From the NCBI GenBank assembly GCA_977862235.1, contig OZ374561.1, positions 2,356,001 to 2,420,000 on the forward strand: a stretch of 64,000 bases of DNA. Direction: 5' to 3'. The DNA comes from Dudresnaya verticillata. Its lineage: Eukaryota. Position numbers and translations under genes: made by a program. This document shows, piece by piece, positions 4,937 through 29,180 of this stretch (positions are counted from its first letter, which is position 1; every line of letters starts with the position of its first letter). The notes under the pieces were generated by a model. That model was not told the DNA's origin, ran no database searches, and saw nothing but the letters and a program-made list of their open reading frames with translations.

Positions 4937-5611
4937 TGTGGTGAAGTGAGCCGTGGCGCGCATGCGGCCCACCGACGGCGAACCAACCGTAACGGGTGAT
5001 GTGGCAATACACCACGCTGATGATCTGGCAACGTGTAACCGTGTCGGATGTTGTGCGCATTGCTGTACGCCGGTACGCATTGCTGTACAGCAGTGAAGCG
5101 CACCAACCATACCGGAGTATTTGTAGTGTTTATTCTTTATTTTTAGTGAGTATCTGTACAGTATGTGGAGTAGTGCGCCAGCCAATGAGAATGCTGCGCA
5201 TGTCCGTGCCGGAGATTGGGACCAGCAGGGCCGATTCCACCATAGGACCAGACCACTAGGGTCTGGCCCCCACGGACCGGACCGCTCGGTGCCACCCTGA
5301 CTTGTATATCCGGGCGGCACCGCAGCGGCTCCTAAGGTAAACGGGTAAGCAACCTTAGCCCAATCCTTTACGGTTTTCCCCGCGCCGAGCCCGTTGCGGT
5401 CTACCACCACCACCGTTACGGAGTCCGTCCCGGCACTTGTACCACCCCCTTGTCTGTTGCTTCCCAATATCCGTCTCGGTTAGCCGCTAGCTGTTCTCCC
5501 GTTACGGTGCGAACTGATCTACCACCCCTTGGAGGTAGTGTTGCTCTCGTCCGTTAAGGAAAGTCAGGCCAGCTGTCCGTCTCGGAGTTCGTGGGTTTTC
5601 ACTACACCACA
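4937..5611 (+). repeat. 5' LTR of element A (675 bp)
   Basis: TGTGGTG...CACCACA; matches 15674-16198 with ~9 substitutions plus a 150-bp extra segment (5291-5440). Confidence 0.97.
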
Positions 5612-5616
5612 TCTTT

Positions 5617-5634
5617 TGGTCTCCCGACCTAGAA
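5617..5634 (+). promoter_or_regulatory. Primer-binding site, probably tRNA-Tyr
   Basis: TGGTCTCCCGACCTAGAA is complementary to ...UUCUAGGUCGGGAGACCA. G72/A73 fit eukaryotic tRNA-Tyr identity elements. Confidence 0.75.
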
Positions 5635-5759
5635 CACCGTCACGGTTGGAAGAAACAGCCGTCGAAATCCGCTACGGTAGGAATTCGGCTGTACCGACAA
5701 CCCGTTACGGAATATTGGATAGACAAGCAAGAACAACCGTTGTGTTCCGTTAAGGTATC

Positions 5760-8237
5760 GTGCAGAACGAAGAACACGCAGACCCTCCCGTTACGGAACC
5801 TAAAGCCGGTGACACTACCCCCGCTGCGCGCAGTCTGCGCAGCGAAGGAGGTGAAATCCGTTCCGGAGTGGAGAACCCAGAAGACATCGTAAAGGGTGCT
5901 GCTGGTAAAGCTCCCCGTTCCCGTGTCGGATCAGACGCCTCCAAGAAGGCAGCGCCGCAGCCCAAGCCGGAATCCCATTGGGTCCACTGGGTCCTGTCGG
6001 AGGTCCTTTCTAGGGTGTTAGAGCATCTCCGATTGGAAGTACAACCTGGAATGGTAAAAGAGGTGGAGTTATCCCTCTCGGAAACTGTTCCGTCTTTGGT
6101 TAATTCCTATCTGGAGCAGCACCTTCCTCGGATAGTGCAAGCTTTGATCCTACAGGAAAAGGTGGCCGCCGAACTCGAGTGCCAGATTGCTCCCGGCATG
6201 GCAAGGCCTCCCACTACGGAAGCTTTCACTGAGCAACTACCGTTACGGAATGAATTCCCGGTCGAGGGAAGAACGCAGCAGCCGCAACAACCCCCCGTTT
6301 TGGGATTGCCGCCGGGCACAGTACCCTCTGGGCCACTGTCACCGGCTCCCGTAACGGATTGTCAACATCCACACGCCCCTACGGGACCAAAACACACTCA
6401 GCCACCGTTACGGTATTCGCCTGGACACGTAGATGTGCCTACGCCAGGGCGCTATCAGCAAGAGCGCTATACCGTTCCGGTTCGATCAGGTGGAGGCAGC
6501 GACCATCTCAGCGATGCGTCCAGCTCACCCCATCCGAGTCGGAGGACCGGTCGAGGTCGGCATAAACGAGATGCCCGACACTCCCGCTCTGACCCTCCCC
6601 GTCAGTCGCACATGGGCGACCACACCCAGCGACGACGCCACCAATCCGGTATGGAATCCAATGAGAGCAGCTCAGAGGATAGCCAACACCGCCGCCGCAA
6701 GAGGAGAAACAGAAGATCGCGGAAACGTGAAAAACATGACTCCTCTACCTCTACGGATTCAAACTCAGAGAGTTCTTCCGTAACGGATAGAGAGAATAGG
6801 CACCGGGCCAGAAAACACGGTGCCAAATCCGGAAAGGTGAAGGTAATCCGGCCGCTACATGACAAGTTTGTCAAGGCGCTGGACTACCGCACCCACCAAT
6901 TGGATAAGAGGAGTAAGACATACGGCTCTAAGTTCTCACAGAACATGAGCCGTATACGGAAGAAACTCGACGTCCAGATGTCGTCCCATACATTCGATGG
7001 GACGGACCCTATTACCGTCTTGGGATTTCTCGCCAAGTTCCGTGACGGTTGTAACATCAACGGCATCGCCGAAGGGGTTGCCGTCTGGTGCTTCCAGTTT
7101 TCCCTTAAAGGACAGGCCGAAGCCCTTCTACAGGCTAGGCTTGCTGGAGGTACCATGGAGGTTGACGTGGAGCAGGCCGAGATGCTCCGCACATATTCCG
7201 AGGTGGTGAACTTTTTAGTGAGAACCTACGCTACGGATGAAGTGATTGCTGAAGCCTATACGGATATCAGCAACTTCAGGCAAACATCCGCCATGCCGGA
7301 AGAGCAGTTCTCGAACCAGCTCTGGGCCAAGGCTCTCCGTTGCGGTACAGTATTTTCCGATCGGGCATTGAAGTCACTGTTCGTTGAAGGACTCCTACCG
7401 GGTACTCGTCAACAGATGAGAAATTATCTAGCGACGCATTCCCAGTTGGATTACCGGGCCATCACTCGTTATGCGACTGGCCTGGGTCAGTCCCATCGGG
7501 CAGCTCGACGCCAAACCGTTCCGGCTCACGTCTTTGATGGGCGCACTAAAGCACGCCCGTCTAAGGTGTTGTCGCTGGATTCCGTATCGGATGTACCCTA
7601 TGCGTCGCAAGGGAATCTTTCCGCTACGGATAATCAAGTGCTAGCCGTCGAGGGAGGCCACGGTGCCGCTACGGGAACGAGCACGGGGGTTACCTTTTCT
7701 ACCCCGTACTCCTCGCCCCCGCAAAGCGTCCACCCTACTCCGCCCAGGATGCCACGCGCACAAGGTCCCCCCTATGGTGGATCTCGCCCGGCTCCTGGCC
7801 CCCAACAGCAGCCGAGTCACCGTTACGGAAATAATGCCCACGATGAGCGAGGACAGCAGCAACCAGCACCTCCGTTACGGGATGAGTCGGATCCTCGGGT
7901 CCGACGCCTTTACGGAAGTGGTAACTGTCGCATCTGCCTTTCGCCAGAGCACGTTGTTTGCCCCTGGATACATGAATCCGATCGGGTTAAGCTTATGGAA
8001 GAGCGCGAGCGCAACTTCCAGAAGCACTACCCTGTAGGTCGCAGGTTCGTTGTAGGAACCAGTTCGAATCCTCAAGGGAATCGGGGCAGGCCGCAAACGC
8101 CCCCTCCGCAACGGAATGCCCCGATACTATCGGTGGAGGACCATGACGGAGTGGAACTCGCAGAATTGCGCGAGCCCATGGCGGCGGATCCGACTGGTGC
8201 AACCTTGAATTCGGAAAACTCAAGGGGGGATGCGTAA
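5760..8237 (+). CDS. gag: Gag of element A (825-codon open frame; first in-frame ATG at 6051)
   Basis: FDGTDPITVLGFL...VNFLVRTYA capsid-like region also found in element B gag; degenerate knuckle CRICLSPEHVVC. Confidence 0.88.
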   Translation: MQNEEHADPPVTEPKAGDTTPAARSLRSEGGEIRSGVENPEDIVKGAAGKAPRSRVGSDASKKAAPQPKPESHWVHWVLSEVLSRVLEHLRLEVQPGMVKEVELSLSETVPSLVNSYLEQHLPRIVQALILQEKVAAELECQIAPGMARPPTTEAFTEQLPLRNEFPVEGRTQQPQQPPVLGLPPGTVPSGPLSPAPVTDCQHPHAPTGPKHTQPPLRYSPGHVDVPTPGRYQQERYTVPVRSGGGSDHLSDASSSPHPSRRTGRGRHKRDARHSRSDPPRQSHMGDHTQRRRHQSGMESNESSSEDSQHRRRKRRNRRSRKREKHDSSTSTDSNSESSSVTDRENRHRARKHGAKSGKVKVIRPLHDKFVKALDYRTHQLDKRSKTYGSKFSQNMSRIRKKLDVQMSSHTFDGTDPITVLGFLAKFRDGCNINGIAEGVAVWCFQFSLKGQAEALLQARLAGGTMEVDVEQAEMLRTYSEVVNFLVRTYATDEVIAEAYTDISNFRQTSAMPEEQFSNQLWAKALRCGTVFSDRALKSLFVEGLLPGTRQQMRNYLATHSQLDYRAITRYATGLGQSHRAARRQTVPAHVFDGRTKARPSKVLSLDSVSDVPYASQGNLSATDNQVLAVEGGHGAATGTSTGVTFSTPYSSPPQSVHPTPPRMPRAQGPPYGGSRPAPGPQQQPSHRYGNNAHDERGQQQPAPPLRDESDPRVRRLYGSGNCRICLSPEHVVCPWIHESDRVKLMEERERNFQKHYPVGRRFVVGTSSNPQGNRGRPQTPPPQRNAPILSVEDHDGVELAELREPMAADPTGATLNSENSRGDA

Positions 8238-8253
8238 GGGCGCCGCCATCCCC
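8213..8253 (+). promoter_or_regulatory. Putative -1 ribosomal frameshift signal gag/pol (element A)
   Basis: G GAA AAC at 8213-8219, a short spacer, then stem GGGGATG...CATCCCC. The -1 frame is open from 8213 into the protease ORF. Confidence 0.7.
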
Positions 8254-11200
8254 GCCTCACGGCGTTCCACCTCTCGCGAGTGTGGACCCGCCAGGGGATC
8301 GGCGAGATACCGTTACGGAACTCCCATTGGCTTATCAGACGAATGATACTATCTGCTTTATGCAACATGAAAATTACAAGATGCAAATTACCGTGGGACG
8401 GACAGATAGCGTGATGCTTCCTTTAATCTCCGTCTTGGACTCTCGCGCTGGGCCCAATCTCATTAGTGCCAGGCGCCTCCCGCGCCAATGGCTCCCACTC
8501 ATACGCCCAGCAGCCAGTCCTCCATTACGGGATGCGTCTAATCGCGCTATACGCCCTCTTGGTCAGATCCAACTTTTCGTCCGTATCGGAGAGCTCCGTG
8601 CTCGCGTCCATTTTCTAGTGGTCGCGAACTTGGCGGCTCCCTGTATCTTGGGAACTACCTTCATCGATCGCTACGTGAAGGCAATCCTCCCACCGTTACG
8701 GAAAGTTGTTTTTCATCCTTACCCACCGGTATCCCTTGTTGTTCAAGCCAAAATTCCGAAGACGGGAACCACTGCAACCCTACAGCCCTCACCTCTTTCT
8801 ACCGCTACGGTTTCTCAGAAAATCTATTTAGCAAAATCTACCCTTATTCCCCCTATGACTCAAACCACCGTAACGGTTAATACCCCCACGGGTGGGTTAT
8901 GCTTCTACTAAATCATCCTAAGCCGGCTTTTAAGCACCTTACGTTAATGGCTAATGGTATTATGGATGTTGTACCTAACATACCGTTTCGGATCTGGGTC
9001 TCTAATTTTTCTAACAAGCCGGTACGGTTACCCAAATCTACTGTCGTGGGCCTCGCTACTGCTGCCCCCTCTGCTATTTTTACCGTTGACGGTATACCTC
9101 CATTTAAGGAGGGGGGAGGAATTATTCAATCATTTAATTCTAACCCTACCTCCGAAAAGGCCAGCAGCATCTCCCCTCATGAAAAGGAAGTAAACAAACC
9201 CGTAACGGAAAATACAAATACTACCGACTGGAAGGATCACGTCCAGATCGGCACAGAAGAAGCATCGCTCCGCAAACGGATTTTAACCCTACTCGAGGAA
9301 TATAAGTCGATGTGGAGTGGCGATCTTGGCAACATTACAGCTGCCAAGCACCGCATCGAGTTAACTCCCGGAGCTAAGCCAGTATACCAAGCCCCATACC
9401 GTGCCGGACATAAGCAGCGAGATCTCTAAAAGACAGAGATCGATCGCATGCTTTCCGCTAAGGTAATTGAACCAGCCTCATCGGAGTGGGCCAGCCCCGT
9501 GGTTTTCGTTCCAAAAAAGGACGGCACCATGCGGTTCTGTGTTGACTATAGAAGGCTCAATTCCGTAACGGTTAGGGACTCATATCCCTTACCCAGGATG
9601 GATGAGTGCATAGATTACCTTCGGGAAGCTACTGTATTTACCACCCTGCATTGCAATAGCGGATATTGGAAAGTCGAGATTCGGGAAGAGGAAAGGGACA
9701 AAACTACCTTCACTAGCCATTTTGGCTTATTCAGTTTTCGGAGAATGCCATTCGGATTGAAAAATGCACCGGCAACCTTCCAACAGGCAGTGGATATAAT
9801 CCTTTCTACGGTTAAATGGCAATTTGCCCTCGTCTACCTAGACGATGTAATTGTCTACTCAAAAACCGTTACGGAACATTTCCACCACTTGAGGGAAGTC
9901 CTTACGCTTTTACGATCCGCTGGGGTAACGTTGAAATTGTCAAAGTGTGACTTCTTCAACGCGTCTGTACAATACCTGGGGCATGTTATCCGTTCCGGAA
10001 AATTAGAAGTGGATAATCGAAATATCCAATCCGTTAAGGTCGCGAAGCCGCCGACTAACCAAACGGAATTGCGATCCTTCTTGGAAATGTGCAACGTGTA
10101 TCGTCGCTTTGTACCCAACTTCGCTCGGATTTCAGCACCGCTAAATAAGAAAACCGGCAAGGGCTCACCCTTTGAGTTTGGAATATTATCCGACACGGAA
10201 CATGAAGCCTTCGAGGAACTGAAGAGACGCCTTATCTCTCCACCTATATTGGCTCTACCCCGTCACGGATATAAATATACGTTGGACACTGACGCATGTG
10301 ACCACCAAGTCGGCTGTGTCCTTCTGCAGGAACAACCGAATGGCGATCACCTCCCTATTGGATACTGGAGCCGAAGCCTCACCGATGCGGAGAAAAATTA
10401 TACGACAACCGAAAAGGAATGCTTAGCCGTGGTCTGGAGCATGTTAACACTCCGACCCTACCTTTACGGTGACAATTTTATTCTCCGAACGGATCACGAT
10501 GCCCTGCGGTGGATCCTGAACCTCGCAGACTCATCTGGCCGCCTTGCCAGGTGGAGGCTCCGCCTATCGGAATTTGAATTTGAGGTGCAATACCGTCGTG
10601 GAATTAAGCATCAACTCGCCGATGGGATGTCGCGACTCCGAACGGATGGCGGTGACGATAGACCTTTGGATGAAGAGATACCCTGCTTTGTCGCCGAAAA
10701 TACCGTCGACGGATTATATGAGCATGGAGTCTATTTAACCGATTGGGCCACATCACGAGAAACTGCTACGGAAAATAACGTAATATGCGCCGTGGAGCCC
10801 GCCAGTGGGAGTGCATCCGCCTCCCCCGACAAGCCCGACGCCATACCGTCACGGTTTACTGTCATCCAAGACTCCGACGTTAAGGATGAGACAATTACCA
10901 GGGAGGAGTTCCTCGAAGCGCAAGCCAGAGACCCTTTCTGTTGTCTCAAATTCGATACGGTAGGCTCCCCTGGATCACAGTTTGACTATGACCGTAACGG
11001 ATTCTTGGTACGCAAGTCCCAATTGGATGGTGCTCTACAGAACGTGGTGCCAAGCGAACTCCGTGGACGGGTATTGTATTTATCCCACTACACCCTGATG
11101 TCGGGTCACCCAGGTGGAATTAAGATGTATTATACACTCCGACAGGATTATTATTGGCCTCATATGGCCAACGATGTATTTGAATCCGTTCGGACATTTC

Positions 11201-12554
11201 GCTCCTTCGTGAAGACAAAGGGAACCCGCTTTCGGAATCAAAGGTTTATGAAACTTTTCCCTGCTAGCGGACCTTTGGCGTTTGTCGCTATCGACATTCT
11301 CGGGCCACTTCCGAATACGAAACGGGGTTATGTCTACCTTTTGGTAATAACCGATCGGTTCTCTAAGCTGACGCGCTGTATTCCGTTACGGACAACAACA
11401 GCCGTTGTGGTGGCTAACGCCTTTCTGGACTTTTGGGTGTATGCGTACGGCGCACCCCAATTTGTCCTAACCGATAACGGACCGCAATTTACTGCTAAGT
11501 TCTTTGACGCGGTGTGTTCCTTACTCGGAGTCAGGCATCTACTCACCGCTGCCTACCATCCGCAGACAAATGGGCAGGCTGAACGATTTAATAAGACAAT
11601 CGCTCAGCGTTTGCGCCATTACGTTGAGGATCATCACTCCGACTGGGATTTGTACCTGCAACCGTTGACATATGCGTACAACATACAGGTACACCGTATT
11701 ACGGAAACAACGCCATTTGATTTGGTGCTGATACGCCACCCATCGGACATTGTTGTACGAGGGGCTCCTGTCGAGCATCAAGAAACCGTTACGGAAGGGC
11801 GTATGACCCCTGTGCTACAGAAGCGGACACCATGCGCCGTTTACGGTATGCGCTCCAGACAGCGTGCACGAAGCAGACAGTGGCTCAGCAAAAAGCCAAG
11901 GCACTGTTTGACCGTAAGGTGCGCTTTACGCCCATAATCCGTAGCGGAGATCAAGTCTAGGTCGACCGGCCGCCCCATAACTTGCGGCCTGCCGAACGCC
12001 GTGAACGGGACCGATTGGAAGGCAAGCCGGATGATGTGGGCGAGGTGGCTCAGGAAATGAAGAAACTTCTTCCGAGAGCCACGGGGCCTTATGAAGTGGA
12101 ATCCGCAACGGAACATGTTGTAACAATCCGCAAGGAAGGGGTATTGATCCCCGTAAGTATCGATCGCATCACGAAGGTTCCGATCGGAGTTGCGGTTCAG
12201 CCGGTACCCTTAACAGTGCCGCCTGTCACGCCATCAACCGTCTACGGAGAAGTAGTGCCACATCCAGAAGATATTACAGTAGTACCTCCTTCTGAAGGTA
12301 CTACTCCCTCCGCGACGGAACCACTGCAAGCCGATACGGGATATGTGATCGACAAGATTGTCGGTCACCGCGACGAACCTACTGGGATGACATAAAAAGT
12401 CCGCTGGTATGGTTACCCTCCGGATCAGGACACTTTTGAGCCCGCGGAAGAGTTACCGCAGAATTTCATCTACCGATATTGGAAGCAAAAGAAAAAGACA
12501 TCCACTAAGGGTAAGCCACGGCGACGTGCTAATCCAACACGTCACTCACCGTAA
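8213..12554 (+). pseudogene. pol: Pol of element A: protease, RT, RNase H, integrase, chromodomain (disrupted)
   Basis: LDSRAG (mutant DSG), YLDD, TDACD, integrase core, chromodomain KVRWYGY...TFEP. Frameshifts near 8910 and 11830, stops at 9427 and 12393, RT Asp>His (TLHCNSG), integrase CxxC lost. Confidence 0.95.
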
Positions 12555-15500
12555 CGGACAGTTGGATTGGTGGGGTGTGAGAACACACAATGTTTATCGC
12601 AAGCTAAGATCGAGGCACAAGGGAAACCGTTAAGGAGATCGTCGAACTGTAACTCTAAGAATTTACGTCGACGCCGTTTCGGAGCAGGGGCAAATGTATC
12701 TTCCTCGTTGCTCCCCTGACCCGTTCGTAAGCCCGGTTCCCCACTCGGATCCGATTGGAATACGCGCTGCGTAGTGTCTCCCAAGACGCGAACCGCACTG
12801 TCCATGCGCAGACGCTGACGACGGACCACTGCGCGGAGATGAATCACCTTCTCCATCAGCCCCTCCGCTAAGGTTAGCACTTCCTGAACGGATCCTGGCA
12901 ATGGGAAGCGCTGCGTACGGCAAATGCCCCGTAGCACCTGTAACCCACCTTCCGTAGCGGCTAAATGAGCCGGAACCGTAACGGGGGGATCCTCATCTTC
13001 TTGAAACTCTACCTTCGGGGAGATCGACGGCTGATCCCCAACCCCGGCTTCGAGTGAATGCTCCGTTGAGGAAACTACCAACACGGACGGTCCCGACTCG
13101 GGTGAAGGTACGTCCTTCCGCAGCGGTGGATCCGTGTCCTTCTCTGGCGAGGCGATATCTGGCGAGGCGATATCGCTTCTCTATAACGGTTCAGGACTTG
13201 ACGCGAGAACCGAGGGCTTGTCTCCAGTTGCCCCAACAATTGGGCGCTTTGCAGCCACTTCCGATGCGGTGATCGACGCCGCATTCCCCGCTAGTGTGGG
13301 AGTGGGCGCCAACAGCGGAGCACTTGGCGGGAGCGGTTCAGCGCGGAAGGCATTTGCGTCGCAGGAGACAGTGCCGCCGGCACAGTATCCGGCGCCACTT
13401 CCGAAACGGTCTGCTCCTTTGAGGCCCTCTTCTCGGATGGCACCGTAGGCTTGGGCACCGCCATAGTCGGCGCAACCACGCCAATGGGCGTTGGGGCCTT
13501 ATCTGATACGGGAGTAGTAGTCTCACGATCCACATCGCGCGACTTGGGCGTCGCGACTACCGGAAGGATTGGAGCGGGTGTCTTCTCGCTACCCGCTGCC
13601 ATTGAGGCGACGGGCGTGACCTCCTCCTGTTCTTCCAAGAAGGGGTCAGCTTCTTGCTGCCTCACCGTAACGGAATCGCGCGGGTCGATTGTACGCGAAC
13701 GCCCCGCTGCCTCCTGACAGCTCACCCAATCTTCAGCCCCGTCCAAACCGTCACGGTACGCATCCCTCGGTGCTTGGCGAGGGGCATGGCCCCGATGGGC
13801 CTGCACCTCTAAGGCCAACCATTCCGGACGCGGATCTTCTCGATGAAGGAAATATGGCTCACCCACGCCGGGCCTAAGCGGGGGCACCGATAGGACATGG
13901 TCCTCGTCCCAATTATACCCCAAGAAGCCCGGAGTGCGTGGCCAATCCTGCTCTCCGTGTACGGATAAAAGACGCTCAACCCGATGGAGAGGGTACGCCG
14001 ACCCCGTCACCAAATCGGCTACGCCGACTTGGCGAATTAGGGCGATCACCGTTACGGGAAGTTGAAAGATACGGCCACAGTCTCCTCCGGGCAGGTCATC
14101 CTCATCCCGTGGGAAGCATCGCCAGTCAGCTAACTTGGTGTTATACCGTACTCCGTAATAGGCCACCTGGAGCCACGAGAAGAGCACCAGCATGGCCCAT
14201 TCCGATCGGAAGATGCGCCACAGTACATCGAGCTGATCTTGATTCGGGGGACGTTCTCCGTTCGGATGCTTGTGATTCCACTCCCGTTCGGTGAGTAAGT
14301 CCGCCGAGAAGTACGCTACGACGGACGGCGTGGGGACAGACAACCAACGGGTCACCTCATAACGCGCCCACCATGACGGAGCTGTAAGGTACAATTCACG
14401 ACGCACCCGATACGGAAGATGGAGGAACTCCTTAGTGTTCCACGTATGCAGGATTGGCGAGCCAACTTGTATTCCGTCACGGGAACGAGTTCGCAAACGG
14501 TGTTCCGTCGCGGCATCATCCTTGCACCCATCGGCATAGCGGAACCAATATACCGATTGGTCATAGGGGCGGTCGAAGCAAATGAATTGCACTCCGACCG
14601 GCGCACCCCGGAGACGGAAACCTGTGGCCAACAGGTGACTCACCTTTGCGGGATATCCTACCTCCCCATGGCAGCGATACCACAACAAATCCGAAACGGT
14701 AGAGATCCTCGATTGACAATAGCCATGCACCCATCGGCTTTGCCACTCAAATTCTCTCCGATTCGGAACAACGCCAATGCGTTGATTCGCCTTGAAGGGT
14801 TGCGCCATGATGGCCTTGTACCTTCTTGCTTCCAAGACGGTTGGATATTTCTCAATGAAGAGGTCCACCGTCATCAGGGGCTTAATCTTTGCCCTTTCCG
14901 CATCGGTTCTAGCCGGGTGCCCCGCGCGATGATCAAAGTGGTGCCCCTGCCAATAAACACTCGGGGGCACGGCCCTCTCCATCACGCCCGTATACCCGGG
15001 GATGCACCACCGGCCACCAAGGTCCCGGTGCAGGTGGGTTGATTTGCGGGGGCCCACGCATCCGTCTCGGTGTACTTGAGGAAGGATGTGGACTGGAAAC
15101 CCTCCTACGACTCGGCGTCGATACCGGTGTCGATGGTGTCCGTAACGGAATGGCCGGTAGGTCTGCCAAGCTGAGCTCCTCGCCACCACGATGGAACGCA
15201 TCATCGCGCTCCTCGGTTGGCGCCTCTCCGTCACGGTGGGTCGCTGCACTCCCTGGTAGCACGGTCCTTGTGGCTGCGCTCGCAGCAAACCGATTCGGAT
15301 CGTAGACCGACCACCCTCGGCTCGCTGATGGAGCCGGTGAAGGTTCCGTCACGGCAGTGCTCGTACGACCGCCCGTCGCGGGTCACGTCGCTGCAGCCGA
15401 GGAAGAAGCCGGCGCTTGCGTCGAAGCATCCGTAACGGTTCGCGCGCCCTGCGCCCGAGTAGTGGAAGCAGCGCGGGAACGCCGTGTCGGTTGAAAGGGC

Positions 15501-15576
15501 GACGGTGAGCGCTTGGTATTCTCCCCTGACATGGTGGGAGAAGCGCGCACAAAGGGGAAGGGGCTGATGAGAACAC
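12542..15576 (-). pseudogene. Large antisense ORF of element A, unknown function (core 13291-15288; frameshifted)
   Basis: A 665-codon open frame, with adjoining frames 14933-15352, 15349-15576 and 12542-13084, fills the space between chromodomain and PPT. Its central domain resembles element B's antisense ORF. Exact 5' extent uncertain. Confidence 0.75.
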
Positions 15577-15660
15577 TTCCGTATGGGGTGTGTGTGTGTT
15601 CGTGGGTGGGGAAGCGATAGTGATCCGCTACGGTGGGCGCCCGAGGACGTGGCGTTATTT

Positions 15661-15671
15661 AAGGAGGGGAG
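15661..15671 (+). promoter_or_regulatory. Polypurine tract of element A
   Basis: AAGGAGGGGAG immediately before the 3' LTR at 15674. Confidence 0.9.
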
Positions 15672-15673
15672 TC

Positions 15674-16198
15674 TGTGGTGAAGTGAGCCGTGGCGCGCAT
15701 GCGGCCCACCGACGGCGAACCAACCGTAACGGGTGATGTGGCAATACACCACGCTGATGATCTGGCAACGTGTAACCGTGTCGGATGTTGTGCGCATTGC
15801 TGTACGCCGGTACGCATTGCTGTACAGCAGTGAAGCGCACCAACCATACCGGAGTATTTGTAGTGTTTATTCTTTATTTTTAGTGAGTATCTGTACAGTA
15901 TGTAGAGTAGTGCGCCAGCCAATGAGAATGCTGCGCATGTCCGTGTCGGAGATTGGGACCAGCAGGGCCGATTCCACCATAGGACCAAACCACTAGGGTC
16001 TGGCCCCCACGGACCGGACCGCTCGGTACCACCCCCTTGTCTGTTGTTTCACAATATCCGTCTCGGTTAGCTGCTAGCTGTTCTCCCGTTACGGTGCGAA
16101 CTGATCTACCACCCCGTGGAGGTAGTGTTGCTCTCGTCCGTCAAGGAAGGTCAGGCCAGCTGTCCGTCTCGGAGTTCGTGGGTTTTCACTACACCACA
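15674..16198 (+). repeat. 3' LTR of element A (525 bp; lacks a 150-bp internal segment)
   Basis: Direct repeat of 4937-5611, followed by TSD GAATA. Confidence 0.97.
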
Positions 16199-16633
16199 GA
16201 ATATCTCAGACAGCGCAGCATCCGGCCTTCCAAACTCCAGTTCCAGATCGCACCAACGGCAGATGGTGCCAAGACCGCGAGCCAGAACACAGAAGGAAAA
16301 CACAGCAGTTGTGCGGTAGCGGCGGCGGGTAGTGACATTTCGCTCTGCAGGCCACTTCATCTTCTGAACGATGCGGTAGATGTCACTTTTGCGGAAGCGA
16401 ATGCGCTGCAGGCAGACCATGTCGTCGATGGCGTCAAGGTCGAAGCGCATCTCGCTAATGCGCAGGTGCCTCTAGCGGCTGAGAGCCTGCTCTCCCTCGG
16501 CGTAGAGCACGTCCCGCAGGAAGAAGCAGGCCATGGCGTTGCTCAGATCCGCGCCGCGGGAGCGTGCCACAAGCAGAATGGACTCTGTAGATCGGTCGCG
16601 GTGCTTGGAAATGGTAGCGTCACGGATCCGCAT
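16199..16633 (-). pseudogene. PIF/Harbinger transposase, N-terminal segment
   Basis: ATG at 16633 (MRIRDATISK...), one in-frame stop, then MRFDLDAIDDMVCLQRIRFRKSD...CRWCDLELEFGR...ALSEIF. It joins YEALEF at 4931 in frame once element A and one TSD are removed. Confidence 0.88.
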
Positions 16634-16655
16634 GTTGTGTTGCCTGGCTGGAGTG

Positions 16656-17300
16656 TGTAGTAGTGTTGGTCGTCAAGGCAGAAACCCGCCACCCGGCAAG
16701 GACAGCTGCCCTGACGGTGCACAACACACTAGCTTAGGTAGCTCGGGAAAAGGGGTTGGTAGAGTCTTTGAAAGGCACAGAGCCTAAGGGAAAAGGGGGA
16801 AAAGGGGCGGCGCCACCCAGCTCGCACAGAGCAACCGTCGTGTGGAGGCAAGGCTCGTAAAGCACCTGAAAGGGAGGTTACGGTGAGTCCGTGAATTCCA
16901 GAAAAAGGGGAAAGACCCGAAACCCACCGTAGGTTCTATTCAGGAGGCCCCTGCTACTCAGGGGCCTATTAAGTATACAGAGCCGAAAATGCTCTTACCT
17001 CCTATGAGCTATTCTAAGCTGTTCTAACTGTCATTATTAATCTAATTGTACTGTTGTCAGTTATAAATACGGATTAGTGGTAGTACCGCGTCGGGACGCG
17101 TGAGTGGCCACAATAAATTACCCAATGGCAATTTGCCATCAATTTTGGTGCCAGCAAGGACGCCAGCAGGGCGCCTCATCCTTACAGCGCACGGTGCTTG
17201 TGCGCGCCTTACAGCTTGATGCGCGTGGGCGTCTTACACCTTAATGCGCACAGATACCTTACAGTGCGCCAGCACTTCTGCTGCGGCTCATTCTTCCACA
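16656..17300 (-). repeat. 3' LTR of element B copy 1
   Basis: TGTAGTAG...CTTCCACA; direct repeat of 29181-29825; the minus strand has PPT GAGGGGG-CCG just before it. Confidence 0.97.
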
Positions 17301-17518
17301 CGGCCCCCTCGTTAAAGCTGAGAGACCCGCGAAGCCAGCAAGGCTGTTTCTATTGGCCCCGTCTTGGACGAGCTTGAAATCCCAGTGGGGTATTGGGCCA
17401 ACAGGTCACTTGTAACTGCCGCCACTGGCGGCCGTTGTGGAACCGTTCGCAGTAGTGACAAATCACTGACTTCGCCGTCCCACTCTCGACGACGACCGTC
17501 TGACTATTCCGACGACCA

Positions 17519-20103
17519 GTGTGCGCTTTGGCGCGGAAAGCCCGAACCGGCTGCATATTTCAGCGACTTCTCAGCGGCTTCCGCTACAGTTCCCTGTGCA
17601 CATCCTCACGTCACACCACCATCTCCAACGCCTCCGCGCTTTGGATCGGCGACCCATCTAGGTTCGCGTACTTCCTCCGTGGCGGCGGTCTGCGCACCTT
17701 GCAGAAGCGGGACCCGCTGTACCCTGTCGCCACCGTGCACCGCTTCCTACGGCCGGGTCGTCACGGGCGCAACAGTCAAGAATAGCCACTGTGGCTGGAT
17801 AGAAGACCTGTTCACCCCGTGGAAGTCAAGATGAGTTACAGACAGATGGCTTATGGCGCGGCAGGTTCGAGCACCGGTGTGCTGGGCGTTGATGTTGACG
17901 AGGTCGGCGTCCCCTTTTCCATCAAGGAGAGTCGCGATTGGCGCGTACGCACCGACTTGACGCACCTGAAAGCGCATGCGGGCGCTGATGTTTCCGACAT
18001 TCGCCGTCGCGGGATGCGCAAGGCGCAGCGCCGCACGTGGCATTCGCATGCCCGTGCCCGTTTGTCCTTGTTGACGGGTTTGACCCGCCGCCTGCCCACC
18101 CTCACGGGTCCGTGGCAGTGGGACTTAGCGCATCCGCGCTTTCGTCATGAGGTGCGCTACACAGCCACCTTATGCAACAAGCTCAACTTGGAGCTGGAGG
18201 AGATCCAACAGGTTCACGATAGTGGCCAGTTTGACCTGGGGATGGTAGCGCATGAGCGTCCGCTGATTCCAGCGGCAGGGACAACTTCCATAATACCAAA
18301 GCGCGTGTCGTGCGCTGGGATGAAACATCCAACTTCAAATACGCGTTGGACAATCCCCAAACGGCCATGGCGTCCGACCTGGTACGCTTCGAACGTAGGA
18401 ATCGCCACCGTACTGGCTGTTTTGTGCCAGCGCACTGCCAAGAGGTCCCCTCCATGAAGCCGGATTTCTATAGGGTCAAATACCCTCAAGTTACGGGCGA
18501 CCATGCGGATCTGGAAGTCTCCTATTCCATGCCGGTGGGCACGGCCACTATCATAGCCTATCTTGGCTTAGAGATGATGGACGGTCATGCCGACGAAAAC
18601 CTCTCATGGTCGATATGTCGGCATGAGTGGATAGTCATGGTGACTCAGGTGTTTGTCTAAGAAGCCCGTCGGGGCTTGCTGTACTTCATTAGCGCTCGTC
18701 TTCGTGGAGCCATTCGGGCCATAGGCGCGGCCGCCTTCTTTGCCAACTCGGCGGATGCCGAGGATCTGGACCAGCTATTGGTGTTCTGTGAGCGTATCCG
18801 CTGGAGCGGTATCACCAAGCGCAATAGGCACTGGCCAGAGAACACTGGCCACGTAACCCCGGTCTACGACCGCGGGGACTGGGTCGAGTTCGACCCTGTC
18901 AAATGGCATCCAGTCCTCCCCGACTATTTGATGGCGCCGATACCCGGGGAGGGTGAGGCCATTACTCTCGACGAGGGCGAGCGCCGAACCGGCTACACGA
19001 AAGGATGGGTAAGCATCCGTTAGCGAGATGAAGGGCCTAAACACCCTGATGAGGTACCTCCTTTTGATGACACCGTCGATGGGGAGACTCAGGGGCCGTA
19101 TGCCCCAGTGTTGCCCCATCATCATCGGGCTGACGCCGAGATTAGGGATCTGTTTGGTCGGAGGGGTTTGGCCATCCGCTTGGCTGCCCACTGGGGCATT
19201 TATTCCCTCAACCTTCACAGTCTTGCTGACTGGGTGGAGGACGTCTTAGCCGAATATGAGGCTCATTGGATTGGCACCCGTGGTCCCATTGAGCGTCTCC
19301 TGGCTCATCTGGAGAAATTACCACCATTGGGCGGCCCAAAGGAGGAGCCGGGTGTCCAGGTCAAGAGAGAGCCTGGCTCTAAGGTTCGCCGCGGCATCGG
19401 CTACGGGAAGCCGGGTTCTTCCGCCCAAGGCTCGTCCGGAGCCATTCTGGCACCTGACGCTCGTGAAGCCACTGCGGCTGACGCGTCGAAGATTCCACGC
19501 GAAGAGCCGTCGGCTGGGATCTCTAACGAGGGGTTAACTATATCATCCAAGACCACCGACGGTCCGGCTCAGCCATTGGCTTCTCGAGTTGGAGTCCCTC
19601 TGCGCTCCGTGCTGCCAGGCTCCATGCCTACTTCTAGCGGCGCGTTACCACGCGTGGCGCCATCTGGGCCTTTGCAGCTACAGCCGCCTGCAACCAGAGG
19701 GGGGTTGGAGGCTTCGCCAGGCCCAAGCCCTACAGTGGCACCGCCGCCGACGTCGAGTCAGGCTGAGCTGCCTTCGGATGGGGCCAAGGAGGTTTCCTCT
19801 GCGCTTCAGAGCGATGAGCCGGTGGCTAAGGACGACTTGATCGTCAAGACGGAACTGGTCCTCAAGGAGGAGGAAGAGTTGGCTCCTGTGGGGGGCGATA
19901 TTACGCCGATGGATGTGGACCCGACGACAGCCAACGAGGCTCAAGGAACGGCAATGGAGGGTACCCGCCGGGGTCGTGGACCGCGTCGTGGCCAGGGTCG
20001 GCGGATCATCCGCGAGGTGCGCCGCATCGTGACGACGCGGGCGCCTTCTGCGCCTAACCCGCCTCTTGGCGATGAAGAGGTCATTGACCTCCTATCGGAT
20101 TAG
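17519..20103 (+). pseudogene. Large antisense ORF of element B copy 1, unknown function
   Basis: ORFs 17519, 17819, 18310, 18676 and 19108 form one frame once a 1-bp deletion (18269/18270) and three stops are allowed. It ends EEVIDLLSD*. Confidence 0.78.
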
Positions 20104-21057: not shown

Positions 21058-21202
21058 ACATCTATCCATTTACATGCATCTATCCAGATTCTTGACTCTT
21101 CTTCCATCTATCCATAATATACATCTATCCAGAGTCTTGACTCTTCTTTCATCTATCCATTTCCACATCTATCCAGAGTCTTGACTCTTCTTCCATCCAT
21201 CT
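21058..21202. repeat. Tandem array, ~3 x 45 bp, built from CATCTATCCA and GAGTCTTGACTCTTCTT
   Basis: CATCTATCCA occurs six times; (GA)(G/T)TCTTGACTCTTCTT three times. Confidence 0.9.
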
Positions 21203-21462: not shown

Positions 21463-24400
21463 TTAAGTTTCAGGGAAAGGTATCCCTTTTTGGCGATGGT
21501 ACCTCGCCACCAAATTGAGAGGGAGATGCCCCTTGGGCTCCCAAGTGTCCTTGGAAGCTGGGCTCTGGAACCACCGCACACGATAAAGGTGTGTGTCGGG
21601 GTCATAGGAAACGATCCTTTCGTACACGTGTTCGCGTGCTGGTGCCTTCTTGAAGCGCGAGAATTTGCGGCTTGCCGTCCCTTCAGCCACTGTCGGCGGA
21701 GATGATGACGCGTCCACCCCCTCATCTCTAGGAGCATTCTCCTGTCGTTGGGGGACAACAGGCGCAGTATGGGCGCCGCTAGTTTGCGCATCCCCACCTG
21801 TGTCAGCCAGTGTCTCGCCTTCAGCACCAGGTGCTTCGGGATGGGCCGGTTCATTACCGCCTGATGCGGTATTCATCGGGGGCCCAGTGCCGTTTGTGTT
21901 GGGCCCGTCGGTTGGCCCAGTTGGGCTACTTGAAGGTGCTGCACCTGTCTCCGGTGGCATTTCCACTACTGTGGGAGTCATGTATAGTGCCAGCGGCGCT
22001 TCGTGTGGCGATGAAGCCAAGGTGACTCGGTCCAAAGAGATTGCTTCTCTCTCGCCCTTGATGTCGAGAACCACCACATAGGTTCCTCTGTCGAGGACCT
22101 TATTTGGCCCAAGGGCTTTCGGGAACAGTTTCCCTTCCCTGCCACGCCTGAAGCGTCCTTCACATTGGTTTCCCGTTCGAGAAATACCCACGACCCAGGA
22201 CGTACCTTTTGGTTAGCCGGTCGAATGCGGCTATTAAAGTTGGTTTCATAGCGCTTTTGCGCTAGTTGCATCCTCGGCAGAGCCGTATCCATGAACTTTT
22301 CCAGTCGAGCGGTTAGGCGCTTCTTGACGTTCGTAGCGGGTATCCCGTCAATGTCTACCGTTTCCGCTTGTTCCAGTAGTAGGGAAGTCGGTGAATTTGA
22401 CAATACCAAGTCAAAAGGGGCTAACCCTGTGGCGCGATGCACTGTCGTATTGTAAGCGTACGTGAGCGCTGAGGTGAACTCGTCCCAGTCCCTCTGGTCT
22501 TCCGCTATGAAGTGGCGAAGGCCCGCTAGGATGGTGCGGTCGAACCTCTCGGTTTGCCCATTAGTTTGGGGATGGTATGTCGACGTGAACATATTCCGAA
22601 TCCGTAGGATATCGCACACGGCGAGGAAGAACTTAGAGGCAAATTGAGACCCATTGTCTGAAAGGACGTAACGGGGCGGTCCATAGATAAAGACCCAATG
22701 GTCACAAAACGCCTTCGCCACTGTATAGGCGGTTACCGTTTTCATCGGTATTGCTCGCGTCAGCTTTGAGAAGCGGTCCGTCATAACCAACAGGAACTCG
22801 TTCCCTTTCCCGGAGCGGGGTAACGGGCCCAGGATATCGATTCCTACGAACTCTAACGGCATGGTTGCCGGGAAGAGTTTCATATGCGAAGCATGTTTTC
22901 GTAACTTCACCCGCTCTTGTGCGCATTTGACACAATTACGCACGGTGGCGTATACATCCAATGCCATCTCTGGCCAATATACCTGTCTTCGCAGGTTATG
23001 ATACATCCGGGTTCCACCTGGGTGTCCCGCCATCTCGGGGTAGTGGGCTAGGTGTAACGCCCTTTCCTTAAGAGAACGAGGTATGAGAACCTGTATTGCC
23101 TTGTCGTTATACGACTTCCGGACTAGGAGTCCTCGTTCGTCCTCGAGATAGCAACCAGGCTTCCCGGCCTCGAGGTTCCTTCGGACCCAGATACAGAATT
23201 CATCTGTTTTCTGCTCACGGAGCAACTCTTCTGTGGTGATGAGGGATAGTCCCTTTTGTCCAGATTCCTTCTCGGCCACTTGGGCGATGACCGCTTCGTC
23301 ATCCGAATCGGACTCATCGACGGGTTCAATTTCCCATACTTCCAACGGTCGCGTGTTGGGCTCCGGTCGCGACCTTTCGCAGGGTTCGTCCCTCGGATCC
23401 GTCTCGAGGACTAGACACGGGATTTCCAAGTCCGGTTCCCATGGCGTGAAGCCATACGTGGGCAGCCGAGATACGGCATCAGCAATCTGATTCTTTTGCC
23501 TTTTCGGTACTGGACCGTGAAGTCGTATTCCAGGAGGCGTAATCTCCAACGGGCCAACCGTCCAGAAGCATCTGTCATGCTCATCATCCATTTCAGCGCT
23601 TGATGGTCTGTATACAGGTCAAAGTGGGACCTTTCTAGATATGGTCTGAGCAATTGTGCCGCCCAGACCACTGCGAGGCACTCCTTTTCGCCTACAGAAT
23701 AATTCTTCTCTGCCTTCGTCAGTCCTCTGCTCCAGAAGCCTATCGGGTGTCGAGTCCCGTCTTCTTCGGCTTGCATCAGCGCGCAGCCAATTTGGTAGTC
23801 GCACGCGTCGGTATCCACCGATAGGGCCTTACCCTCTTGTGGCAACCTAAGAATAGGAGGCGCTATTAGCGCTGACTTCAGCAAGCCGAACGCCTCGCGC
23901 TGACGTTAATTGAACTGTGGCTGTTCAAAACCCACTTCCTTCTGAAGGAGGGCATTGAGCGGAGCTGCCACGCGAGCGAAGTTAGGCACGAATCGCCTGT
24001 AGACGTTGCATTGACCGATGAAAGACCGCAACTGGGTCTGGGTGGTCGGCTCCTTGAAGCCTTCAATGGCTTGCGTATTCTTAGTCGCCACTTCTAATAA
24101 ACCCGGACGGATGACGTGCCCTAGGTAGTCGACACTCTTTGCGAAGAAGTTACACTTCTTGAGTTTCAAGGAGACCCCTGCTTCTTGTAATACAGAGAGA
24201 ATCTCTCTTACGTGCGTGACATCCTCGTCGACAGTCGCAGAGAATACGATAATATCGTCGAGGTATACGAGGCACGATTTCCATCGAAATCCTGATAAGA
24301 GGATGTCAACCGTTCGTTGAAATGTCGCCGGAGCGTTGCATAGCCCAAAGGGCATCCTGCAGAATTGGAAGCAGCCCGCGTGGCATGTAAAAGCAGTCTT

Positions 24401-25995
24401 ATGCTTATCCTCCGGTGAAACCGGAATCTGCCAGTAGCCTGAGTTGCAATCCAAGGTCGTGAAATATTGGGCTTCGCCCAAAGAGTCCAGACACTCGTCC
24501 ATGCGTGGCAGAGGATATGTATCCTTCACAGTTATCGCGTTAAGCTTGCGATAGTCTACGCAAAAGCGGAGTGACCCGTCGGGCTTCTTAACCAAGACGA
24601 CGGGGCTCGCAAACTCAGAGCGTGCAGGCTCTATAACGCCTTCTTTGAGCATTTTGTCGACCTCATCCTGTTCTGCTTGACGGGCTTTAGGGCCCGACCG
24701 ATACGGTTGCGTAAACACAGGTTTCGAACCTTCTTGGAGCTCAATTCGGTGTTCGGTCACCTTAATGGTGCCGAGTTGTCCGTCCCACATACCGGCGAAC
24801 GGTTTCAGCATTTTGAGCACGCGGCGCCGATCCGAAGTGGACAGGTGTTCCAGCTCGAGGTCATCAACCGTACTAGCGGTTGTCGCTGATGTTGCGATTT
24901 TGATTCCAGGCTTAGAGACTATATCCGTCTTCAGAGCAGCAGCAAGCCCCGCCCCCCTACATCGGAGAATGTTTCGGACGAGGGAAGCGAGTCACTGTCA
25001 GGAACATTATCCTCGATGGAGACAGTGTAGACCGGCGTCTGCGTGGGCGCCGGTACAGCCTTGCCAAGGCTTTGATTCTTGGAAAGCCGTTGAGGACGCG
25101 AAGAGAAGTTCGCGACCTTGACGTGGAAGAGACGGTTCTCTTGAACGTTAACGATTCCATTCGTCAAAACGACTTGTCGGCGCTCGTATAAGCGGGGTAG
25201 GGATTCCAGGAAATGTGTTCCTTTGGCGGAACAGGTAACAGGAACCCATGACTCACTGCCGGGCAGTAAAGTAGTAGTTTGTGCGACGCGAAGGAGTCGC
25301 GAGGTAGGTAACGGGGGAACGTCCATTGGTTCGTCAGACCTGCCTTTACGAGGTATACCGCATCGGCGGCGTAGAATTGGGTGAATGGACCCGTCGCGAA
25401 GAACCATGTTCTGTTGGCGGACGCGTAACCCTTCCACGTGGGTATCGATAAATGTGCAACCCAATATGGCATCTACTGCCAATGCCCTTATGACAACAAA
25501 AGGTTGCCGAACCGTGTAGGACCCGAGCCTGATTATCAGGGAGACTGTTCCCAGTGTAGTTAGTCGGTGACTTGACGCGGAGGTCAAGTTCACAATTGAC
25601 CGTGTTGTAGAAATCCGTTTCTTGTCTTTCGGTGATAGAACATCCGCACGGATGAGATTAGGGCCTGCCCCTGTATCCAGTACGGAGAGCACACGAGTAA
25701 GATCGTCAACAGAAGTCCCGATGGACGCAGCTACTTTATAGTTGTAGCGCGACAAGGAGCAAACGGGATCCTTACAATATTCATGATACTTCCGTCCAGG
25801 GGGTAAGCCCACGGGACGCGCTAAGATCTTCTTGGAAAGAGAAGTGACAGATTCACTGACAACCGGTCGATCCGTTGAGGAGAAGCTTTCGAAGCTGTAG
25901 CTCGAGGAGCTTGATTCAACGTACCGATCGGGGGGTTCCGGTGCCACCTGAGATATGTGGTGTACCGAAACCGGTTCCCCCCTCGCTATTTTTTC
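21463..25995 (-). pseudogene. pol: Pol of element B copy 1: protease, RT, RNase H, integrase, chromodomain (frameshifted)
   Basis: VLDTGAG, YLDD, TDACD, HPGG...CVKC, integrase core, chromodomain YRVRW...DTWEP; split across ORFs 24931, 23906, 23411, 21978, 21463. Confidence 0.95.
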
Positions 25996-28673
25996 GCCTT
26001 CATTGCGGGCGACCGCGGTAGCGGTGGAGGTGGTGGAAAGGGACGAGTCCCTTGGCGTGGTGACCTGGGCGTTGGCCTCGGAGCGTCGATGGGGTGGTTC
26101 AATCTAGGTTGAAATTGAACCTGTCGATTTCCCCCTTGACTTGCACCCAAATTTTGACGGGATCCATCCGTTGCCCTATGGGCGGCCCGGCGGGCCCTCG
26201 CTCGTTAGCGAACTCCGGCAGTCGGCCAACGGTCGCCAGCCACGCTTTTTGCTCGTGTGATAGTTGATGAAACTGTCTTCTTTTTAAAGTCTCAAAAGGC
26301 TGCTCATCGGTTCGAGCCAAATGCGGACAGTTGGGCTTTTTATGGCCAATGCCATAGCATTCGAAGCAGATATCATTGGGTTGGTCTTCAACCGTCACCC
26401 ACCCAGGGCGTTGAGTCCTGGTTCGCTGTGCCCAGGCTGGGAGCCTATTGTTGTAGTTCTGCGGTACCGCGTCAACTTCACCGTGATACGGTTGGTCGTA
26501 GTAATACTGTGTCGACCACGAATCCGATTGGGTCCGCCGTTGATGGTGGCGCTTCGTTAGCGATGGCAGCTACGACTGCGTCTTCACTTTCCGCATCAGA
26601 GCCGCTGCTCTTTGAAGTATCCGAATCGGAGGCGGATGCATCCTTTGCCTGGCGAATTAGGAGCGCCCGCCCTGACTTGTGGGTACGAACCTTCTTCAAG
26701 GTCTTCCTTGGTAGCGTCCTATTCGCTTTTGGCGTTCGTCCGCCACCCACTAGCGCCCGATGGGAATCTCCCTGCGCAGTCGCAAGCTCGACATAATCCG
26801 CCAGTCTGGCAGTCTTTGGGTCCAAGGACGACGTACTTAAAAGCGGCTTCACCGCTGGTAGCAAACCCTGAATAAACCTGGTTATCAAATCTTGTTCGGT
26901 GTATACACCAGCGACTCGACGCGCTTTGTTCTACAACCTTCTCGAAAAGGTCACTTCGTCCTCATCTGGCTCCTGCACCATTGTGTCCATCTCAGAGGCA
27001 ATCCTCTCAATATAGACGTCCTTGGCATATGTCCGAAGAAGGTAATTCACGGCTTCGGGCCATTCGATGAAACCACCATTGTCGTCACCCGCAGCGTCAA
27101 AATTCGCTTCAAACATATCCTTCGCATCCTTCTCGAGGAACTCGGGGATGAAGAGGATAGCGGCACCTTCGCTGATATGGGCTTGATCGAGCTGCCTCTT
27201 CAGCGTGGCTAAGAAGCCAATAATTGACACTGGGTCACTCCCGTCAAAACGGCGACTCCGCATAACGGACTTGACACGTTTGATTTTCTTCGTGGTCGCC
27301 TCGGTCACCTCGGGCCCGCGGTAATCATCCAGGTTCAATAACCTATATCTTCTATAGGACAGCACCTGTATGAATGCGGGATTCCTAGGAGTCAACTCCT
27401 TCACACCGGAACGTCGGGGACCCCTCCAGGAAGACCATGACGGTCTAGAATGCGAACGGGAACCCGGTCCTTCTTCATCCGAGGGACCCGGATTAGGGTG
27501 AGACCCTGACCGAGGATTCTCCTCGTGACGATGGCTTGAATATCTGTCACGATGAGAATCAACTTGGTCGCGGTGTGCAGAAGACCCAATTGGTCTGGTG
27601 CACTTGCAACCCAGTTGGCAACGGCCTCCATCTCCTTCACCTTGGGACCCACTGTCCGACCCCCTATGGGGTAGCCTCCTACGCCTGTCGCGCGTACCGC
27701 GAGGCACTGGTGAGCGCCGTCTCATGACTTCAGGGATATTATCCCTCTCGCGGGTTACGCGCCGCATCTGCAATTCCAGAAAAGCGACACGACGCTTCTC
27801 CTCATCGAGTTCTTTCCTTAGGACCTCGATGGCTCTGTCCTGTTCAACGCACCGTGCGTTGTCCACGTTAAATTGAACGTCCGCAATAGCCATTGCGGCT
27901 TCTGTCCTGGAAAGGTCGGCAGCCTTCGTGGCTTCATCTAATTCAAGATGAACCGATTCCAACTGGTCCCCCATTGAGTCCACTTGGGCTTGTAGGGTCT
28001 CGACCCTTTCCTTATCTAAACCCCTCAGGGGGCGTTGTTGGCAACGAGAACTGACCATTTCTTGGCACTTAGCCAGTAGCTGGTCGTCTCGACGCGTGGT
28101 GGCGTCGTCGAAATAGCGTTTCACCCGTGTGAGGGTTTCATCCGCCTGGCTTTCAAGCAGCGCCAATACGCTAGTGCCGAGAGCATTCTCGATGCCGGTC
28201 TCGACCAAGTGACCAATTTCACGCTCCGTAAAGCACCGTTGGTCGCTTGAGTTCGCCTTCGTTCTCATCGGCATTCCGATATCGGGTGGAAGCGATGAAG
28301 TCGTTTCTTCGTCTAAGGCCAATCCGCCTGTGTCATGCTGGCTGTAACCAGCTTGAAGCATCGGCGGTGGCAGCGTACTAGGGTCCGGACTCTCATTCGC
28401 ACCAATGTTGGCGGTGCTTGCGGCTGCAGTCCGGGCCGTATTTTCTCCTTCAGGGATCTGTCCCTTTCCATGGGCAGACGGGTCTTCGTCTCCTGGTGCG
28501 CCCGCCATTCGGGGCGGGCGTTCCACTTCTCCTACTGTAGGACCTCGAGCCAAAGCGGCTATTACAGCGCGGGTTCTTGCTCCCGTGGTCCTCACGGAGG
28601 ATAAGCTGCCGGTACATCTACCAGCCCGGCTTGTTAAGCCTGGGCGGGTGGTTTCACCGTTAGATGTCGGCAT
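25986..28673 (-). pseudogene. gag: Gag of element B copy 1 (frameshifted) with CCHC zinc knuckle
   Basis: FDGSDPVSIIGFL...VNYLLRTYA; CFECYGIGHKKPNC; ends at G AAA AAA TAG followed by a stem-loop (putative -1 frameshift). Confidence 0.88.
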
Positions 28674-29158
28674 CTTCTAAACGAGGTTGTTATCGACAAC
28701 GTTAAAACATAGGATTCGGTCCTGTGGTTGCGCTAATCGGGGAACTTCTCCCTAGGATGGCAAACTTCTCAGAACCGTAGTTCTCGGGGTTACGGGCGAT
28801 TCTGTCCGCGTGGAACTCCCAACGCGCGCGACCGCACAGCCCGTATACAGACGTGTTTTTGTTGACAGGTGTCACGATAACCTGCAGGAAGAGTTCCTTG
28901 AAGGGGCGTCACTCCACGACCAGGATCTTGTTCCTTGTACACAATTAAAAACCGCAGAAGCGGTGGCAGTTGCTTGCCTCGAATTTGACGCAACTTCGAA
29001 GCTTGGTATGAAGCTGAGAAACCGTCGACACTTGGCCGACTAGGATATCACCCTCAGGAAGTAGTTCCTTGAATTCTTGCACGGGGAATTCTCGTCCCGT
29101 GGGAAGGTCCGAAAGAAGACTTTCGGATGAGGTAGTAAAAAGGGGCCGACCCTGAAAA

Positions 29159-29179
29159 CGATTCTAGGTCGGGAGACCA
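29159..29179 (-). promoter_or_regulatory. Primer-binding site of element B, probably tRNA-Tyr
   Basis: Minus strand TGGTCTCCCGACCTAGAATCG, 1 nt from the 5' LTR; the first 18 nt are identical to element A's PBS. Confidence 0.8.
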
Positions 29180-29180
29180 C

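Follow-up and report, generated by a model that had tools for sequence, protein, structure and literature searches.

Two chromodomain-bearing Ty3/gypsy retrotransposons of the red alga Dudresnaya verticillata carry an antisense gene near their 3' end that belongs to a real and selected accessory gene family, apparently undescribed, which represents a new protein family at a position where antisense ORFs are already known. We consider it very likely that this frame is the third gene of a red-algal chromodomain Ty3/gypsy lineage and that it is functional for the element. As far as the available portions of two published accounts go (PMC7264820, PMC11963269), the function of 3' antisense ORFs in LTR retrotransposons is an open question. 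In the family described here, a confident structural model that matches no solved fold, a set of near-invariant residues, and copies that look full length make function directly testable.

Elements A and B and their antisense frames

The window is the whole 64,000-nucleotide stretch of DNA that was analysed. Both elements mapped in it, here called A and B, are complete Ty3/gypsy LTR retrotransposons with a chromodomain, a class assigned from domain content, LTRs, TSD, primer-binding site (PBS) and polypurine tract (PPT). Their features, in window coordinates, are as follows.

4937-16198, + strand: element A, 5-bp TSD GAATA
4937..5611, + strand: A 5' LTR, 675 bp, TG...CA
5617..5634, + strand: A primer-binding site, 18 nt, identical to that of B
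5754..8237, + strand: A gag, weak Retrotrans_gag match (E=0.01)
8147..12554, + strand: A pol, fragmented (protease, RT, RNase H, integrase, chromodomain with internal stop)
12542..15532, - strand: A antisense accessory gene, about 1000 codons with frameshifts and stops
12662..12679, - strand: NLS-like basic motif of A, close to the C-terminal end
12788..12961, - strand: A second conserved module, helix-Pro-helix into likely coiled coil
13807..14964, - strand: conserved core of A, model of 386 aa with pLDDT 86.5 and pTM 0.88
15661..15671, + strand: A polypurine tract
15674..16198, + strand: A 3' LTR, 525 bp, with a 150-bp deletion
16656-29825, - strand: element B copy 1, TSD GAGTG
16656..17300, - strand: B 3' LTR, 645 bp
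17831..20103, + strand: copy 1 of the B antisense accessory gene, with two internal stops and one nucleotide deleted at 18270
18002..18810, + strand: part of the B core that the A-family profile matches (34126-34935 in copy 2)
21049-21201, no strand: 45-bp x 3.4 tandem repeat between the stop of the B accessory gene and the B chromodomain
21463..26103, - strand: B pol, fragmented (protease, RT, RNase H, integrase, chromodomain)
26099..28676, - strand: B gag region
29162..29179, - strand: B primer-binding site
29181..29825, - strand: B 5' LTR, 639/645 bases identical to the B 3' LTR
32780-45950, - strand: element B copy 2, within a 16.1-kb tandem duplication
33955..36228, + strand: B antisense accessory gene copy 2, one frame, 757 codons from the first ATG, two internal stops

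As the original prediction had it, each element contains a long antisense frame that lies between chromodomain and 3' LTR and converges on pol, and both the elements and the frames could be mapped; in A and B all these frames are interrupted and none is intact. For A, an ORF had been proposed at about 12542-15576, and a long antisense region is indeed there, but it is broken and its first ATG is at 15532, 141 nt inward of the 3' LTR, rather than at 15576; its longest piece measures 685 aa (13291-15348) and the second, in a different frame, 212 aa (12542-13180). The single frame of about 860 codons described for B copy 2 was recovered as one frame of 862 codons, which however holds three stops (codons 90, 382 and 503) and counts 757 codons from the first ATG at 33955, 530 nt inward of the 3' LTR. 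Over the core domain, the antisense frame has no stop in A, one in B and none in a third, GC-rich family (C) recovered from metagenomes; the five other frames have 5-19 stops in A and B and 1-10 in C.

The gag and pol genes of A and of B are broken as well, by stops or frameshifts, and the domain order gag-PR-RT-RH-IN is found in both and also in family C, whose gag similarity was found using A gag as query. The B chromodomain matched PF00385 at E=5.6e-4, under the gathering score, that of A was read from the translation and has an internal stop, and in family C a tblastn match was obtained in 6/39 loci. The RTs of A and B are 62.5% identical. The two LTRs of A agree at 516/525 aligned bases, and between A and B the LTRs show no useful similarity, the best blastn match being only 16 nt, which bears out the dissimilarity noted earlier. 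The 18-nt PBS, which we take to resemble the 3' end of tRNA-Tyr, is common to A and B although their LTRs are unrelated, and family C apparently uses another PBS. The tandem repeat of B sits in a 1.36-kb non-coding gap that separates the antisense gene from the chromodomain.

Homology across families and selection in family C

The blocks that had been aligned by eye between the A and B proteins are the same ones that a family profile aligns, and in this respect the original prediction was right, although the by-eye alignment alone is within chance. In pairwise comparison, in fact, BLASTP gave a borderline E=0.005, the core score was reached by 9/500 global and 13/500 local shuffles, and the full-length score by 33/500 and 205/500, respectively. 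It is the profile that makes the homology significant, and the pairwise alignment alone does not carry it. A phmmer search with the A core, run as a full scan of 1.84 billion representatives, returned 96 matches at E<=0.001 (22 at <=1e-10) with 24-57% identity, the best at E=2.8e-31 and 33% identity. The profile built from these 96 homologues of A scored B at 49.6 bits, compared to at most 5.4 in 500 local shuffles of B, so that the profile alignment proposed as a check proved significant, and it scored family C (P0110) at 44.9 bits. After removal of the eight matches nearest to B, the values were still 45.2 bits for B and 41.4 for C, compared to at most 5.6 in 400 shuffles. In the six frames of the window, the profile matches A and the two B copies only, and the latter are not independent because they derive from a single 16.1-kb duplication. 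Within the family, B is a short subtype that lacks about 25 residues ahead of the GRL motif. Judged on sequence comparison, the conclusion that the antisense proteins of A and B belong to one homologous family holds.

Among the 26 family clusters looked up, the one that bears an organism name is a 90% cluster of five hypothetical gene models of Gracilariopsis chorda, and the named proteins returned for the family were from G. chorda or carried generic JGI labels only. It is likely, then, that some red-algal "hypothetical genes" are accessory genes of retrotransposons. Copies that look full length include PXF39757.1 of G. chorda and metagenome locus L005. One phmmer match of 633 aa (P0048) is a repeat protein of eight stretches to which the family profile finds no match; it is likely false and was excluded from alignments.

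Genomic context was analysed for A, B and C only, three families beside some 90 further homologues. The C protein P0110 retrieved 39 metagenome loci, all of one family, and in 20/39 pol domains were seen downstream of its ORF and in opposite orientation, which is the antisense, pol-convergent layout. Two of the loci (L010 and L016) have two bounding LTRs of about 645 bp. Two weak same-strand integrase matches (L010 and L013) fall outside the element, that of L013 within an apparent copia element. The remaining loci end early or are interrupted; the 14 checked by blastn all align to the element, and four long ones among them extend to its 3' pol region. These loci were picked by the antisense ORF itself. 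In L005 (1-9855) the order is the 3' half of the C gag with the 5' LTR, one LTR, the antisense gene and pol; this may reflect an arrangement with one LTR, either tandem or circular, or a collapse in the assembly, and the antisense ORF there is full length, with 792 codons.

Selection was estimated as pooled Nei-Gojobori dN/dS, with loci >99% alike collapsed and bootstrapping over codons only; related copies from several samples are pooled, which makes the intervals too narrow. The C core gave 0.45 (95% interval 0.36-0.57; 22 distinct of 32 covering loci), the N-tail of the accessory protein 0.64 and its C-tail 0.40, and the same element gave 0.40 for integrase, 0.37 for RT/RH and 0.49 for gag. 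The same DNA read in four other frames gave 1.01-1.23, and the mirror frame that shares third positions gave 0.54 yet has 7 stops. Core variants shared between copies had a value of 0.45 and singletons 0.66, as expected when copies decay after insertion, though shared RT/RH variants, at 0.08, are far more constrained than shared core variants. The ratio near 1 across copies that might have been feared was thus not found, at least in this third family. These sequence data show that the antisense frame is under purifying selection in family C, and that it has decayed in A and B.

The same data bear on the possibility that the frame is a passenger which does nothing for the element, whether it was taken from the host, came in as a nested element or is just a shadow ORF. 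Both copies in the window are broken, as this reading would have it, and the G. chorda copies are annotated as ordinary hypothetical genes; gag and pol are broken too, however, and the five G. chorda gene models fall into one 90% cluster. Because the antisense frame is the constrained one (0.45 vs 1.01-1.23 in the four others), and three families with RTs of 54-63% identity all have it at the same position, we find this reading very improbable and largely refuted. Selection has kept the gene in one antisense location despite RT differences of 37-46% between the elements, which indicates instead that it serves the element.

Protein architecture and proposed nuclear role

The accessory protein consists of a variable N-tail, a core of ~360 aa, a low-complexity linker and a module of ~55 aa with a helix-Pro-helix arrangement that leads into a likely coiled coil, often followed by a terminal basic motif. 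In the AlphaFold2 model the core forms one unit that is largely helical (pLDDT 86.5, pTM 0.88), with values of 90.3 and 0.87 for its C-half. Searches against Pfam, PHROG, PDB sequences, Foldseek and VIA gave no match, and the model is possibly that of a new fold. The original prediction had recognised no env or known domain, and the Pfam and fold searches agree with it; the broader suggestion of an uncharacterised, homologous and selected accessory protein family likewise stands, given the significant profile, the dN/dS of 0.45 and the lack of a domain or fold match. Several charged residues of the core (profile numbering) are near-invariant, namely D106 (34/36), R111 (37/39), E115 (36/40), R202 (59/69), E269 (56/62) and D294 (63/70). 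Arginine makes up 8-13% of the core, whose net charge in 24 members ranges from -10 to +10 and is thus not uniformly basic.

The second module was recovered by leave-one-out at 4.9-24.4 bits in 10/10 seeds, compared to at most -0.9 in reversed sequences. At E<0.01 it was found in 18/53 tails, 10 of which are the hand-picked seeds, while 4 of the remaining 8 are closely related to other rows; reversed tails gave 0 matches, and the module was undetected in B or C. The C-terminal segment, which we had taken to resemble a bHLH/SAP-type module, returned no such match at E<=10 in PDB sequences or Pfam. A K[KR]x[KR] pattern within the last 30 aa was present in 11/28 long members (those, among 98 examined, with at least 150 aa beyond the core), compared to 0.24 expected and a maximum of 4 in 1000 shuffles; none was found in B or C, and the last 30 aa are without the motif in 17/28 long members, some of them truncated. 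The B antisense protein ends (20080-20103) in an acidic SUMO-interacting-like motif, and similar ones occur in several homologues, a post hoc lead only. Both the NLS and the SIM patterns are consensus motifs.

An NLS-like end and the lack of a clear membrane anchor indicate the nucleus, and a nuclear role is in our opinion probable. More specifically, the reading that we prefer, tentatively and at somewhat short of an even chance, is that of a trans-acting activator or anti-silencing factor that would bind the DNA or chromatin of its own element and keep it transcribed against host silencing. Such a gene would have a promoter of its own, located within the 3' LTR or immediately inward of it, and would be expressed independently of the 5' LTR, as a separate antisense unit would allow; given where the first ATGs lie, an internal promoter as in Grande is as possible as one in the 3' LTR. 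The protein would then be imported through its predicted C-terminal NLS-like motif, with a predicted disordered linker, oligomerise through the predicted helix-Pro-helix/coiled-coil module and bind nucleic acid through its arginine-rich core, and its effect would be positive, opposing silencing. The accessory proteins of A and B barely align while their RTs are well conserved, and a protein that diverges much faster than RT yet keeps its fold fits a factor engaging host chromatin defences. In G. chorda TEs are methylated and associated with small RNAs, according to the accessible part of a review (PMC8566409). Over-represented 7-mers in the four LTRs were not significant (5.5-92% of shuffles equalled the top count), and the only outliers in non-coding DNA were the tandem-repeat gap of B and a C run in the leader of family C.

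The core could alternatively be catalytic, with a fold not known for enzymes and with chromatin or nucleic acid as substrate, and AlkB or methylase domains have been captured by other Ty3 lineages. Its many near-invariant charged residues and its behaviour as a single rigid unit of ~360 aa (pTM 0.88) would suit a catalytic domain, but no enzyme fold or Pfam match was obtained and, with the exception of H94, no metal-binding Cys/His set appears among the columns conserved at >=70%, which makes this distinctly improbable. An env-like or other membrane protein is extremely improbable: although the best 19-residue hydropathy is >=1.6 in 12/24 sequences, mostly in a central helix, that helix lies within the high-confidence globular model and begins with a near-invariant Glu, the values of A, B and C are only 1.1-1.6, no viral fold was matched, and the gene is antisense rather than sense, with an NLS-like C terminus.

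Another reading is a nuclear negative regulator, HBZ-like or acting in copy-number control, which would keep gag-pol expression down, perhaps with help from the pairing of sense and antisense RNAs. The NLS-like motif, the selection and the antisense layout fit it too, an antisense transcript must by its nature pair with the genomic RNA sequence, and both retroviral antisense proteins and a dsRNA route are raised in the available text of PMC7264820; a protein of 750-1000 aa with a fast-diverging tail nevertheless exceeds what self-restriction needs, and divergence that is rapid relative to RT would suggest a host-facing role, so that we hold this to be quite unlikely. A post-transcriptional role, either Rev-like export of genomic RNA or nuclear import or tethering of the pre-integration complex, is also unlikely. 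It would draw on the NLS-like motif and the arginine-rich core, and has been proposed for plant antisense ORFs (PMC7264820, as far as its available text goes), but these elements already have an integrase chromodomain for targeting and no RNA-binding fold was matched. Returning to the anti-silencing factor, a bolder version, which taken as a whole we regard as rather doubtful, is that red-algal chromodomain elements anciently evolved a new-fold protein of this kind independently of plant VANC, PMD and TRP28, made in antisense, nuclear and recognising its own element, which would recruit or block the SUMO-dependent chromatin machinery of the host. If true, an anti-silencing protein of their own would be part of the reason why LTR elements have enlarged the genomes of red seaweeds.

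Comparison with known systems and surroundings of the elements

Antisense ORFs at the 3' end are known, with function unknown, in Retand, Grande, RIRE2, PvRetro13 and the fungal Boty, and the antisense gene of Grande (gene23) encodes a nuclear protein with its own promoter (both from the accessible part of PMC7264820). The red-algal family fits the aORF-3R class by position, antisense from pol to 3' LTR, and by conservation, with 0.45 in family C vs 0.49 for gag and 0.40 for integrase. The antisense ORFs of Retand carry TRP28, reported only from flowering plants in the available portion of PMC11963269. Retand/Tat elements (TRP28, PF04195) are non-chromoviruses of flowering plants, whereas those studied here are chromodomain elements of a red alga, and TRP28 was found in 0/94 members at E<=0.05 in single-sequence scans. 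That chromodomain elements of another host lineage have a second, apparently unrelated family in this place suggests repeated origins of the arrangement. The tandem repeat of B near its antisense gene has a counterpart in about half of Retand elements.

Boty has a chromodomain, and HBZ is a small bZIP protein. The Boty element of Botrytis/Sclerotinia likewise belongs to Ty3/gypsy, lives outside plants and has an antisense ORF on its 3' side, as described in the accessible text of PMC7264820, but it is fungal. HTLV-1 HBZ is also encoded in antisense near the 3' end of its element and acts as a regulator in the nucleus, according to the available parts of PMC11963269 and PMC7264820, but it is retroviral, with no sequence or fold link to the red-algal family. 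The extra ORFs of sunflower and maize Tekay chromoviruses are also accessory and have a predicted nuclear localisation; from what is accessible of PMC11728184, however, they are located 5' and have a DRBM-like fold, whereas no dsRNA-binding fold was matched here.

Our working analogy for mechanism is VANC of VANDAL/MuDR, a TE accessory protein which, as the available part of PMC13547354 describes, combines a MAIN-like globular domain with a coiled-coil oligomerisation region, likewise globular plus coiled coil. VANC, however, belongs to a dicot-specific DNA transposon and has target motifs, whereas this is an LTR element with no significant 7-mer in four LTRs. The VANC/MAIN fold (PDB 9LNK according to the accessible text of PMC13547354) was absent among the fold matches listed, from libraries that may not include 9LNK, and a Pfam scan of the accessory proteins gave no match to PMD (PF10536). 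A screen of three red algae found no retrotransposon chromodomains, as far as the available text shows (PMC3350952). Our literature search found no paper on such a red-algal gene; subscription papers and repeat-database entries, mostly outside its coverage, could annotate it.

The rest of the window offers some further observations. Element A is inserted in a PIF/Harbinger-type DDE_Tnp_4 transposase ORF (4443-4936; PF13359, E=1.7e-16), and what is left of a third gypsy element (181-2109, - strand) comprises the C-terminal end of an integrase joined by an extremely long disordered linker to a clear chromodomain (E=4e-12); the 3' part of this element, the expected site of any antisense gene, extends beyond the window. 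The tandem duplication (16332-48581) has units of 16.1 kb with 99.98% identity, one indel and two substitutions, includes all of B and a methyltransferase gene (30627-32180 and 46752-48305), and may be either very recent or an assembly artefact. At 54957-59330 (- strand) there is one open frame of 1457 aa that by eye is like a BK-type calcium-activated potassium channel, and a neighbouring TM9SF gene, which marks the host as a florideophyte red alga, is 81% identical to that of G. chorda, 78% to that of Agarophyton chilense and at most 50% to those of plants.
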